Origin: Eledone cirrhosa
Lineage: Eukaryota
Direction: 5' to 3'
DNA: 64,000 nt
NCBI GenBank assembly: GCA_964016885.1
Contig: OZ024740.1
Location: 302,436,001-302,500,000, forward strand
The position numbers were made by a program, and so were the translations under genes. Below the pieces are notes generated by a model. The model saw nothing but the letters and a program-made list of their open reading frames with translations. It did not search any database and was not told the origin of the DNA. Below, piece by piece: positions 9,904-15,870 of this stretch; positions within the stretch are counted from its first letter, which is position 1, and the number at the start of each line of letters is the position of its first letter.

Positions 9904-10040
9904 GGTTTGAGGTTCACCACTGATTAGAGCTGGTCAATTCCGCATGGTCAATCTTAATGTAATAATAAGGAGAGTACTCAACGTAAAGCAGTTCAACCGT
10001 CTTTGTTTTTGTAGTTGGTGGTGCTAGTACGGAGTTAACT

Positions 10041-10303
10041 ATTATAATTAAATGACAGGAGGCTGGACTTGTGTAAATCCTTGAAAGGTTTATTATACTA
10101 TGATCATTTCAATGACCGGGTTCCGTATGAATCCGGTGATATCATCAGATATTCGAAATATAATAAATTAATGTAATAGATAAAATCCATGGGGCTGAAA
10201 ATCGATCACCGGATTCATACGGAACACGGTCATTGAAATGATCATAGTATAATAAACCTTTCATGGATTTACACAAGTCCAGCCTCCTGTCATTTCATTA
10301 TAA
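10041..10303. repeat. ~100-bp inverted repeat carrying a type I HHR (10095-10152, minus strand); PLE pLTR remnant
   Basis: Arms 10041-10140 and 10204-10303. Minus strand: ATAT CTGATGA (stem II) GAAA TGATCA TA GTAT, with palindromic stem III. Confidence 0.75.
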
Positions 10304-10345
10304 CATTATAACATTATATATATATATGTATATATGAAAAAGTTT

Positions 10346-10414
10346 GTCCTCATCAGTGGCCATCCAACCGTCGTAGGCATTTCGTCGCATTAAAGGCCAT
10401 ATACCTCAGGTTGG
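10346..10414 (-). ncRNA. Rearranged (non-circularly permuted, pseudoknotted) hammerhead ribozyme, copy A1
   Basis: CCAACC UGA GGUAU A^UGGCC UUUAAUGCGA C GAA AUGCC UAC GA C GGUUGG AU GGCCA CUGAUGA G. Stems covary with copy B. Confidence 0.7.
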
Positions 10415-10967
10415 TGCGAGCAACGGCTAAAAAAAAGTCGTTGAGACACGTAAATAAGGGGGACGCTAGGGTAAACGAACAAAATGGTTTAAGCAGCAGA
10501 AAGTGATGAAGAAGGAAACAAGTCCCAGATTTCTATGAATATAAATTCGGTGGAATCGTGAACGAGAGAATAAAGACCATCAAACCTGGTTGAAATGTGA
10601 GCAAGGAAGGAATTTCGCACAGGTCTAACGGGAGGAAGAAGGGGTCTGGTCTGCGAATTCGGTAAACATAAGTTCTGTGCAGTCGCAGACGAGAGAGAGA
10701 GAGAAAAAAATTCCTACCGGCTTGGCCAAGTGTCCGCGAGAAAAGGATTATGGACAGGTCAAACGGGAAGAAAGGGGAGGAGGAGAGGTAGTGACAGAGA
10801 GTGAGTGAGTGAAAGGTGAGGAAGAGGCTAACAGAGAGAGAGACTACTAGAAAGGGTAAAGACACAAAGACCGAAACAGACTGGTGGCAGCGGAGGAAAA
10901 AATATATGTGTAAATATGATAATAATGGAGCTGCGGCGCTGCAAATGGGTTACGTATGAAAAGGTTT

Positions 10968-11036
10968 GTCCTCATCAGTGGCCATCCAACCGTCGTAGGC
11001 ATTTCGTCGCATTAAAGGCCATATACCTCAGATTGG
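10968..11036 (-). ncRNA. Rearranged hammerhead ribozyme, copy A2
   Basis: Same as A1 except CCAAUC, which keeps pairing with GGUUGG through a U-G wobble. Confidence 0.7.
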
Positions 11037-11154
11037 TGCGAGCAACGGCTAAAAAAAATGTCGTTGGGACACGTAAACAAGGGGGACGCTAGGGTAAACG
11101 AACAAAATAGTTTAAGCAGCAGAAAGTGATGAAGAAGGAAATATATATATATAT

Positions 11155-11593
11155 ATATGTATGTATGTATGTATACGTACATACATATATGTATACAGAC
11201 GTACAGTAGCATATATATATATATATATATACATATATACATACAGGTACACATACATATATGCACGCATCAGTTTAGCGGTATGCCTGACCGGTATGCC
11301 TGACCGATTTAACTCACTCAATATGCAAATTAGGCTGCTCAGCCGTTAATTTTCATAAGGAAAGTATATACTTTCTAACGTTCAACTATCTGGCAGATGG
11401 GTATACGGTGCTGATGATAGCTAACAAGCTTGAAACTAGTACATCGTTCCTGTGTCAGTGTTGAACAAAAAGGTGACGTGGTTGCCTTAACACCGTATGG
11501 CATAAATTCAGCTGTTCAGTTTGTTTACAAACGAACAAAGCAGCGTTATAATAAGCGTCCGCTAAACTGATGCGTGCATATATGTATGTGTAC

Positions 11594-11648
<55 letters not shown>

Positions 11649-12083
11649 TGCTACTGTACGTCTGTATACATATATGTATGTACGTATACATACATACTTA
11701 CATTTAAGTAAGTGCCATACTAAGAGTGAGAAATGAAATTTCGTTTTCATTTTATTTCAACTTATCGTTTTCGGTATGCCTGACCGATTTAACTCACTCA
11801 ATATGCAAATTAGGCTGCTCAGCCGTTAATTTTCATAAGGAAAGTATCTACTTTCGAACGTTCAACCATCTGGCAGATGGGTATACGGTGCTGATTATAG
11901 CTAACAAGCTTGAAACTAGTACATCGTTCCTGTGTCAGTGTTGAACAAAAAGGTGACGTGGTTGCCTTAACACCGTATGGCATAAATTCAGGCTGTTCAG
12001 TTTGTTGACAAACGAACAAAGCGGCGTTATAATAAGCGTCCGCTAAACTGATGCGTGCATATATGTATGTGTACCTGTATGTA

Positions 12084-13375: not shown

Positions 13376-15215
13376 TTGTTTAGCAAGATTCTTTATCTGA
13401 AAACGTGTGTTGAAACCGATATTGTTATACTTTGGGAGGGTCATGTTGTCCATACGGACACCCGAAAACCACAATGAACTAAAGAAAATCATTGCACATG
13501 CGGTGGGGGCCAGCATAAAATTAACCCTTAAGGAACATATGTTCAAATTTAATGGAAAAACATATGCTCAAGAAGAAGCAGCAGCCATTGGTGTTAGCAT
13601 TGCAGGCGACATAGCTAACCTATTCATGGTATGGTGGGACAGTAGACTTAAACTTAAACTTAAAGAGCAATTAGAAGACCCCTTAACCCTGATAATGTAC
13701 TCCAGCTACGTTGATGATATAAACATCGTAGTTAAAACACCCCCACTAGAGAACAGTCAGGAATTAGAGAAAAACACAATGGAAAGCAACCAGCAAATAG
13801 CAAACTCCATCCACCAGCGTATTAGAGTTACTATAGACTACCCAAGTAAACACCCCAACCATCGATTACCTGTACTAGACACAGAGCTCTGGTTAGATAC
13901 CATTAATAACAAAAAACAAATCCTCCATTCCCATTATGCCAAATCCATGACTTCCAAATATTTGATCCACCGAAACTCACCTGTTTCGGACCATACCAAA
14001 ATCAACATACTGATTGCGGATTTGGTACGGGTGATGAGAAACGTGTCCCGCATGTGCAACCCCGAAGAACTAGAAATACACTTACAACACTTCATCCACC
14101 GTATGCAGTTCTCTGGTTACAATCAGAGAGATAAAATCAGAGTGTATAGAGGAGCCAGAACCAAATGGGAAAAAATGGTAAATAATGACACAAATGGGAC
14201 CTGCCCCTTGTATAGGAGCAAATTTTCGAATAGAATAGAAAGAACTAGGAATAAGGCTAATAGAATAAATTCATGGTATGATAGCAATAAATACCAGAGT
14301 GTAATGTTCATCGATACAACCCCTAGAGGTGAATTAGCTTACAAATTTAGAAGGGCCCTAGATAAACATAAACTCAATATTAAGATAGTAGAAAGACCAG
14401 GTACCTCCGTAAAAACACTTATTAGCAAGACATACCCTTTTCAAAGACCCCTCTATAGATAAGAAATGTATAACCTGTAAATTAAGCCCCCATATTAACT
14501 GTAAAACTAGAAATGTAGTATATAGCATAAGATGTACTGAAGGACAATGTAGAGACAAAAATATAGTGTACATAGGTGAGACAGCTCGTAGTGTCGGGGA
14601 ATGGATAAATGAACACTGGCGAGACCTTCAAGATAGTAAAGAATCATCTGTACTCTACCAACATGCTAAAATAGAACATAAGGGTAAATTAGAGAACATA
14701 GAAATAAAAATAGAATCTACACACAGAAAAGACGCAATGTTTAGACAAATCACAGAGGCAATAAACATAAAAGAATTACAACCAAAATTAAATAGAAAAC
14801 ATGAGTGGAACAGCAACATCACAACTTACAATTAAGGACAAAATGAAAACACACACGCACATAGAACAAACAACCAACCTGTAACATGTAAATAAACAAA
14901 TAAATAAACGAATATAAACACACACAGACACCCGGATGTGGCGCATGCGCAGACTGAGCACACGATACACACACAGAAACAAGATGGCGTAGGACAGAAC
15001 AAAGGAGAGGCACAAAAACAAAGAAAAGAATCCCCGGTCACTGAAGATGTCACAGAATGTGTCACGAAAGAACTTTGACAATATATAAAGTTGTGGAACC
15101 AACCAACCAACCGGAAATTTATAAATTCCTAAATTTATAAATTTATTATAATAAATTGAAGTGAAAGCAACTGGTGCGTTTGTTTCTTATTGGCAACATG
15201 ACCCTCCCAAAGTAT

Positions 15216-15220
<5 letters not shown>
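13376..15220 (+). mobile_element. Penelope-like element family 1 (Naiad-like), 5'-truncated, with inverted tail piece at 13376-13450
   Basis: RT plus GIY-YIG coding region, pLTR with HHR (15037-15079), (TA)n on both sides. 13376-13450 is the reverse complement of the tail seen at 19382-19458. Confidence 0.92.
13451..14835 (+). pseudogene. PLE reverse transcriptase / GIY-YIG endonuclease (truncated, one frameshift near 14450)
   Basis: FKFNGKTYAQ, AIGVSIAGDIANLFM, YVDD, LPVLD, HFIHRMQFSGY; then C-x2-C...NVVYSIRC...C...YIGETARS...EH...LNRKHEW. Confidence 0.92.
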
Positions 15221-15298
<78 letters not shown>

Positions 15299-15306
<8 letters not shown>

Positions 15307-15865
15307 GAGAAGAAAGAATACTGTGTGGTTGCACATGGGTTACATATTTTAAAAATAGTCCTTCGTCAGTGATTTTCCAACCTTCATTGGTATTTCATCG
15401 CTTTAAAAATCATATACCTCCGGTTGGTGTGAGCAATAGCTACATAAAGCTATTGGGACAAGTAAATCGCGTAAAGCGAGGGAGACAAGTAAACAAACAT
15501 AGAAGGATGATAGCAACGCAAAGATAGGAAAAAACAAGCAACATGAGAATCCGGTCAGCTTAATCTGGGTAGATTTCATGAGCGAGCGTAATACAGACCA
15601 TCCGACGGGAATGAGATGTGAGCAAGAAGAGAACACACTACACGCCAAACGAGAGGAAGAGAGAAGGGGAGAAACAGAGAATGAGTGAGTGGAACTGCGA
15701 GGAAGAGGCCAGTCGAGAGAAAGTGTAACTGACTGAGGGGGCGAAAGAAGGTGAGAGAAACAGAGAGAGCGGGGAAGCAGTAAGAGAGAAACAGACACAC
15801 GCAGCCGAGTAAAATATATATAAAAAACATGAGAAGAAAGAATACTGCGTGGTTGCACATGGGTT

Positions 15866-15870
<5 letters not shown>
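15299..15870 (-). mobile_element. Non-coding retrozyme-like element (subfamily B), 524-bp period, ~45-bp terminal direct repeat
   Basis: AAACATGAGAAGAAAGAATACTG.GTGGTTGCACATGGGTTACA at 15301 and 15825; flanked by (TA)n; homologous to subfamily A around the ribozyme and TGCA.ATGGGTTAC. Confidence 0.72.
15358..15427 (-). ncRNA. Rearranged hammerhead ribozyme, copy B
   Basis: CCAACC GGA GGUAU A^UGAUUUU UAAAGCGA U GAA AUACC AAU GA A GGUUGG AAAAUCA CUGACGA A. Confidence 0.7.

Follow-up and report, generated by a model that had tools for sequence, protein, structure and literature searches.

A (TA)n-inserted, non-coding repeat family of Eledone cirrhosa with a predicted hammerhead in rare strand order, likely copied by PLE machinery

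The genome of Eledone cirrhosa (3.0 Gb and rich in (TA)n) harbours a non-coding repeat family with thousands of copies inserted in (TA)n, two fixed 3′ ends and variable 5′ ends. The family is likely copied by a PLE endonuclease and RT from a self-cut monomer RNA that is predicted to be circular, a reading to which we assign a probability of about 0.72. The cutting is attributed to a predicted self-cleaving hammerhead whose parts stand in a rare, knotted order. The first-pass annotation of the window, by which we mean the whole 64,000-nt stretch analysed here, had proposed a retroelement family that codes for no protein, carries a ribozyme, inserts in (TA)n and is moved, perhaps, by the machinery of PLEs, and this proposal is supported. 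Some of the reasoning behind it has to be replaced, as described below. The features on which the analysis is built are collected in Table 1.

Table 1. Features of the two retrozyme copies and of the neighbouring PLE, in window coordinates.
Feature	Position	Strand	Basis and remarks
Copy of subfamily A (622-nt monomer, 1.3 units)	10333..11141	-	Self-comparison
3′ end of A copy	10333-10336		Fixed +67 site, joined to (TA)n
5′ end of A copy	11141		Unit position 504, a truncation point
Upstream type-SGC-order hammerhead of A	10961..11079	-	Covariance model; predicted cut 11022/11021 (AUA), by analogy
Downstream type-SGC-order hammerhead of A	10339..10456	-	Covariance model; predicted cut 10400/10399, by analogy
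Predicted 622-nt monomer, candidate circle	10400..11021	-	Deduced from the two ribozyme positions
GTAACCCAT.TGCA motif	10940..10953	-	Within the ~53-nt "tail" that separates the two fixed 3′ sites
Copy of subfamily B (524-nt monomer, 1.1 units)	15290..15870	-	Self-comparison
Ends of B copy			3′: long site (+114 to +123), running into (TA)n; 5′: truncation at unit position 69
Single type-SGC-order hammerhead of B	15351..15468	-	Covariance model; predicted cut 15413/15412
5′-truncated Neptune-like PLE ending at (TA)n	13401..15219	+	Candidate mobiliser family, separate from the retrozyme

Self-comparison of the window gives subfamily A a period of 622 bp with a 187-nt terminal repeat (96.8% identity) and subfamily B (15299–15870 in this comparison) a period of 524 bp with a repeat of 45–55 nt, while around the ribozyme the two are 71–76% identical. 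The annotated unit numbers and periods are borne out by these values, as is the presence of a ribozyme in each terminal repeat of A; B carries one. These three are the only strong covariance-model matches in the window, and all lie on the minus strand. The GTAACCCAT.TGCA motif that the two copies had been said to share about 20 nt downstream of the ribozyme is present 18–19 nt behind CTGAYGA, and is a candidate RT-binding signal. The interior of the ribozyme strand is indeed rich in pyrimidines (69–73% in six of six subfamily units), and none of these six units has a conserved reading frame, the longest ATG frames being 51–115 aa and unlike between subfamilies. Rfam did not place a hammerhead at A or B among the matches listed (the best 150 of 286), which were mostly (TA)n artefacts. 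Both copies lie within (TA)n, B adjoining a PLE end and A lying ~480 nt from one, so the annotated setting stands for both, but not as a specific feature of the family: a Neptune end occurs in 13 of 101 retrozyme loci and in 3 of 20 control loci of an unrelated (TA)n-inserted element, and at such similar rates closeness to PLE ends is nonspecific.

On the minus strand, the blocks of the ribozyme core run from the cleavage strand through the GAAA strand to the CUGAYGA strand (S-G-C). Stem II is reduced to at most 1 bp, with 10.1–11.1 a standard pair in 19 of 40 aligned rows (the A rows of this alignment are offset by one column at the 3′ end) and A-A or C-A in whole subfamilies. In the covariation model, an upstream GUCC pairs with the GGAC that follows the core and an upstream UCGC with the GCGA that precedes GAAA, with a hairpin sitting between these pairings on the upstream side. 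The two stem II strands are predicted by this model to pair with the upstream strand in a four-way junction. CCAACC/GGUUGG joins stem III to stem I via a 3-nt bulge with tandem GA/AG, which is kept in 36–40 of the 40 rows at the four positions. We take this bulge to be a kink-turn-like motif, located between stem III and the outer helix; one diverged clade has UA on its short strand.

Across the 40 sequences, 95.1% of 1319 cells are paired and 17 of 33 pairs show two-sided changes. None of 500 shuffles reached the score of the structure model, a test that is inflated by the relatedness of the sequences, and slid controls gave 26–45%. Two-sided changes are seen in four of the six pairs of stem I, and stem III varies in diverged families. 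The UCGC/GCGA helix shows a two-sided change in just one of its four pairs among the 40 sequences, with further support from the diverged families, a comparison in which 5 of 35 rows lack the anchor. A full stem I (6/6) is found in 27 of 44 matches from the genome itself versus 0 of the 66 that this pattern retrieved elsewhere. The latter (60 in metagenomes and 6 in viral contigs, three of them with 5/6) were set aside as chance matches.

The core pattern has 10,090 matches in the genome (5032 + 5058) against none on either strand in a reversed control, so the ribozyme core is not a product of chance. DNA searches returned 3160 first-look candidates for A and 4487 for B, and among the 40 scored in each case the full-unit matches were 95–98% identical for A and 91–95% for B; A copies differ from their own majority sequence by 0–2.7%. 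A looser pattern, built to leave out sequences with the main stem III, gave 637 matches versus 24 in the control and uncovers diverged families, with some false matches from a palindromic repeat among them. Tandem spacings in the sampled subfamilies are 515–644 nt, and the copies are spread over many contigs in short arrays. The family is, as is typical of non-LTR retrozymes, a dispersed and tandem non-coding unit of a few hundred nucleotides, with one hammerhead motif per unit whose activity is predicted. The diverged SGC families (L225-L254) include one without the upstream hairpin, in look nearest to the published Naiad end.

The ends of the copies were mapped on the ribozyme strand, counting positions from the predicted cut. 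Of the 63 arms in family A, 31 terminate at +67 and 29 at +115 to +124, and the other three are an internal fragment, a filter artefact and an end at +84; the long site accounts for 27 of the 29 arms in family B. Both fixed 3′ sites (+67 and ~+120) join (TA)n, and since both sit on internal TATA-like stretches, microhomology with the target may help priming. The 5′ ends of A are scattered over unit positions 1–576, the few at position 1–2 being alignment splits. This polarity marks the ribozyme strand as the template strand. It also replaces the annotated idea of different, permuted start points, because the A copy of the window ends at +67 and the B copy at the homologous +120 site, both of which are used in family A; the apparent permutation is one fixed end combined with truncation. 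In the sampled A and B loci, it is the 5′ side that varies. Nor is the terminal redundancy uniformly short, with arms of 0.12–2.78 units in A and up to 3.76 in B, lengths that are biased upward because 30 of the 48 A loci were best full-unit matches and two more were chosen as long arrays. The locus sample as a whole favours long copies with an intact ribozyme, and three duplicate B loci were removed from it.

Inverted pairs occur at 14 of 48 A loci and 1 of 27 B loci. At 13 of the 14 inverted A loci there is one arm at each fixed site, which is the "tail" signature of PLEs. The copies combine 5′ truncation, fixed 3′ ends, a tail at one end and an inverted 5′-truncated arm, the features expected of a non-autonomous PLE. 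Other inverted structures are present nearby. At 9990–10330 of the window, a nested inverted duplication ends at (TA)n beside the 3′ end of A, and similar inverted flanks occur at 11141–11700 and in locus L004; breakage of the hairpin type at (TA)n may lie behind these structures. Long inverted arms are also found in a (TA)n-rich array of 6.3 kb at 36717–43054.

The form of the template can be approached through the junctions between units. Across the cut, 101 of 107 unit junctions are seamless (GGTATA), in a set retrieved with a pattern that favours intact junctions. An excess of 5′ stops at the cut was not found in family A, where a small, raw count gave three TA-joined 5′ ends versus five at a control TATAT site with equal microhomology, and a DNA footprint of cleavage at 5′ junctions is not supported by these numbers. 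Derived variants are held in common within an array more often than between loci (per 100 sites, 0.51 vs 0.07 in A and 0.93 vs 0.29 in B), an excess of about sevenfold in A and threefold in B. As cDNA would start 67–120 nt behind the cut, a linear cut monomer would yield short copies ending at the cut. The copies instead pass through the cut without a pile-up and extend to 3.8 units, which makes a circular template likely. Seamless junctions, multi-unit arms and shared variants fit rolling-circle copying, which would also account for the continued renewal of tandems by subfamilies. These observations are compatible with uncut multimers too, and the variants held in common within an array could also stem from the multimeric transcript of a single locus. 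On balance, we lean toward ligation of the monomer at the cut into a circle as the somewhat more probable course. The circle had originally been proposed from permuted starts and short redundancy, grounds that do not hold, and it is now favoured through seamless read-through of the cut.

In the mechanism that we propose, a tandem copy would be transcribed and two knotted hammerheads would cut out a monomer of 515–644 nt, whose ends would be ligated at the cut. A PLE protein would bind near the tail motif, nick (TA)n and prime cDNA internally at +67 or ~+120. Priming of both target strands, using one site each, would create an inverted pair. The RT would travel around the template and stop at variable points, leaving arms of 0.1 to 3.8 units, and arms with two ribozymes could seed new monomers.

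It is less likely, yet a serious alternative, that the family is mobilised by a PLE from an uncut linear multimeric or read-through transcript, with the fold serving mainly in RT binding or being protein-assisted, and with no circle at all. A PLE RT preferred unprocessed RNA in vitro in the experiments drawn from PMC11167929, and the lack of clustered 5′ ends at the cut, the weak 10.1–11.1 pair and the poor self-pairing of the monomer (z of −1.67 and −1.25) all agree with this account. On the other hand, 5′ truncation alone would shorten arrays with time, and yet tandems are homogeneous in several subfamilies, each with a unit length of its own. The core and stems are also kept in diverged families, though the pattern that retrieved these families itself required the core.

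A second alternative concerns the ribozyme rather than the template, and holds that it is a domain-swapped dimer between units or molecules, with canonical strand order in trans instead of a knotted monomer. PLE hammerheads have been reported to cleave as dimers, and tandem units would provide two sets of strands. We consider this improbable here, given that type-SGC monomers cleave in cis in the results available from PMC10085705, that the covarying outer helices close locally within ~105 nt, and that many copies have a single ribozyme.

As to the source of the enzymes, the most likely current driver is the young Neptune-like family, at about even odds. The copy in the window contains the C-terminal part of an RT, a Cys linker and a GIY-YIG-type C-terminus, together with a canonical-order hammerhead core near 15041. 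Pfam gave no match on fragments of this copy, and the clade name rests on domain order and linker as described in the portions of PMC8557442 used here. The family has 4460 candidates, and its best matches are 92–97% identical, comparable to the 95–98% of A; one copy retains a 736-aa open RT-to-endonuclease stretch. Among 42 Neptune-like ends, 17 are at a short site and 23 lie 46–66 nt further on, while for the other two no TA tract was near enough; in one inverted pair, one arm stops at the short site and the other at the long one. The earlier suggestion that the co-located PLE is the mobiliser gains from this agreement in age, (TA)n target and two-site ends, which makes the Neptune-like PLE fit as driver, but it loses from a tail without significant similarity and from an adjacency that is not enriched. 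Similarity between the tail of the retrozyme and six tails of PLEs and other hammerhead repeats was not significant (in the best of 36 comparisons, 13 of 300 shuffles did as well). The few direct junctions with other elements indicate no single partner, with 6 of 52 non-TA, non-self flanks matching a small library. Two further Neptune-like copies (L274 and L280) have a long Asn/Thr/His-rich N-terminal region before the RT.

The ancestry of the ribozyme may be a different matter from its present mobilisation. In the 3′ ends of Naiad_Obim and Naiad_Ovul (PMC8557442 supplement), the same helices can be recognised by eye ~120 nt before the terminus, which suggests that the retrozyme ribozyme descends from a Naiad 3′ end. 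Naiad as the present driver conflicts with the ages involved, as cephalopod Naiads are described in the consulted parts of PMC8557442 as long inactivated and the A copies are young. A search for young Naiads with two exact motifs gave no match for the first, the Naiad ribozyme motif, and two for the second. One of these two seems to be unrelated; the other, at L266:1950-2700, is a heavily degraded, stop-ridden remnant of a Naiad-like endonuclease. When longer relatives of the endonuclease were sought at the protein level, there was one match.

These Naiad ends bear on a further alternative, under which the copies would be pLTRs or 3′ ends that have come loose from a coding PLE such as Naiad and are not mobilised alone. 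The annotation had named this outcome as one that would count against it. The published Naiad 3′ end does share the fold, but none of the copies studied is a pLTR belonging to a coding PLE. The units close on themselves at 515–644 nt, and at 30 diverged-pattern loci there is no RT frame upstream on the ribozyme strand beyond unrelated neighbours. The absence of the Naiad ribozyme motif, with a stop-ridden remnant as the only Naiad found, also contrasts with A copies so close to their majority sequence. This account is therefore very unlikely, and for families A and B largely refuted. A satellite or minisatellite expanded by DNA-level recombination would account for the tandem arrays, but it is contradicted by the polarity of the ends, and the spread over many contigs, the shortness of the arrays and the paired inversions make it scarcely credible.

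We can join the copying of a circle by a PLE with the Naiad ancestry in a more ambitious and only tentative reading, in which a hammerhead that is active in cutting and non-circularly permuted, its stem II replaced by a four-way junction and its stem III bearing a kink-turn, would have come from Naiad, escaped as a circular-RNA retrozyme and now borrow the RT of a different PLE clade. If this joint reading is true, the inverted insertions would show two target strands primed at two different fixed sites of a circular template, and the origin of tandems, tails and inversions in PLEs could be read from them directly.

Several other hammerhead repeats occupy (TA)n around the family. A short repeat between (TA)n tracts (11265–11575 and 11770–12050 of the window) has a canonical-order hammerhead core near 11411 with the octamer ATGCAAAT upstream of the core, and a related-looking element at 48220–48590 gives a sub-threshold match to Rfam HH9 (37.7 bits). 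A separate (TA)n-ended repeat with a canonical CTGATGAAGGAC..GTCCGAAA core (L205-L224) has 6,259 matches, and the C block of several SGC subfamilies is identical to its first 12 nt. One idea is that a canonical-order element beginning with the same CTGATGAAGGAC may have supplied the SGC C block. At L131:3140-6085 (duplicated in L132), an arm of the SGC retrozyme is joined at its 5′ side, with no intervening (TA)n, to part of the canonical-core repeat in inverted orientation, which continues into a PLE RT-endonuclease region; possibly, a single insertion event copied three RNAs.

If our interpretation is right, a ribozyme topology known solely from environmental RNA is placed in an animal genome, at ~10,000 copies. 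Such a scaffold would escape searches based on stem II, and would explain why a hammerhead seemed to be absent from Naiads. A short non-coding unit with two exact 3′ ends would also be a compact substrate for the study of PLE partial tandems, tails, inversions and the circle intermediate.

We searched the literature on type-SGC ribozymes, on octopus or Naiad with hammerhead, and on kink-turn or permutation with retrotransposon, and found no description of this element; the S-G-C hammerhead scaffold is undescribed in the literature so covered, with most subscription journals outside the scope. The nearest ribozymes are the type-SGC hammerheads (HRIMA-1 and variants), whose cleavage has been validated and which, in the sections of PMC10085705 at hand, come from metatranscriptomes and not from the genomes of known organisms. 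They share with our element the S-G-C order, all core motifs, pseudoknots of stems I and III, and an extra helix beside stem I, but have a stem II of 5–6 bp (PMC10085705 supplement) where ours has at most 1 bp.

In their mode of insertion, the copies resemble PLEs, whose hallmarks are a tail at one end and inverted 5′-truncated copies (PMC8557442, in part). With these, and with non-autonomous Chlamys such as MRC1, they share 5′ truncation, partial tandems, an inverted arm, a one-end tail and a microsatellite target. The tail is 30–40 there versus ~53 nt here, and the element has no ORF; the 3′ ends of non-autonomous Chlamys are similar to those of their partners, whereas the tail of this element showed no significant similarity to that of the young PLE. 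In vitro, an Anolis PLE used two internal RT start sites downstream of the hammerhead, matching the end map presented here, and extended both target strands; it acted mainly on uncut RNA and did not require cleavage (excerpts of PMC11167929). Naiad PLEs are alike in their (TA)n target and, by eye, in the S-G-C fold near the 3′ end (PMC8557442 supplement), but differ in primary sequence, and are reported in the available text of PMC8557442 to be without canonical hammerheads.

Among retrozymes, the plant LTR type is defined by fixed LTRs, a type III hammerhead, a PBS, a PPT and a 4-bp TSD; the present copies differ in having variable 5′ ends, variable redundancy and a hammerhead that is not type III. 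Non-LTR animal retrozymes have been proposed to be non-autonomous derivatives of PLEs (PMC7229834; 10.64898/2026.07.22.740005, both in part). Like our element, they occur as dispersed non-coding monomers and short tandems with one hammerhead per unit and low GC. In the parts of these sources that we draw on, they have a type I hammerhead, as against the S-G-C order, and invertebrate monomers of ~150–450 nt, as against 515–644 nt; the circles described are highly self-paired (PMC7229834), unlike the monomers of this element. One of nine tested Xenopus retrozyme dimers cleaved in vitro (10.64898/2026.07.22.740005). A strict (TA)n target and two defined 3′ ends set the present element further apart, and its circle is so far a prediction. 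Judged from its sequence, this repeat is one that works like a non-LTR retrozyme but stands outside the type-I class as described in those sources.
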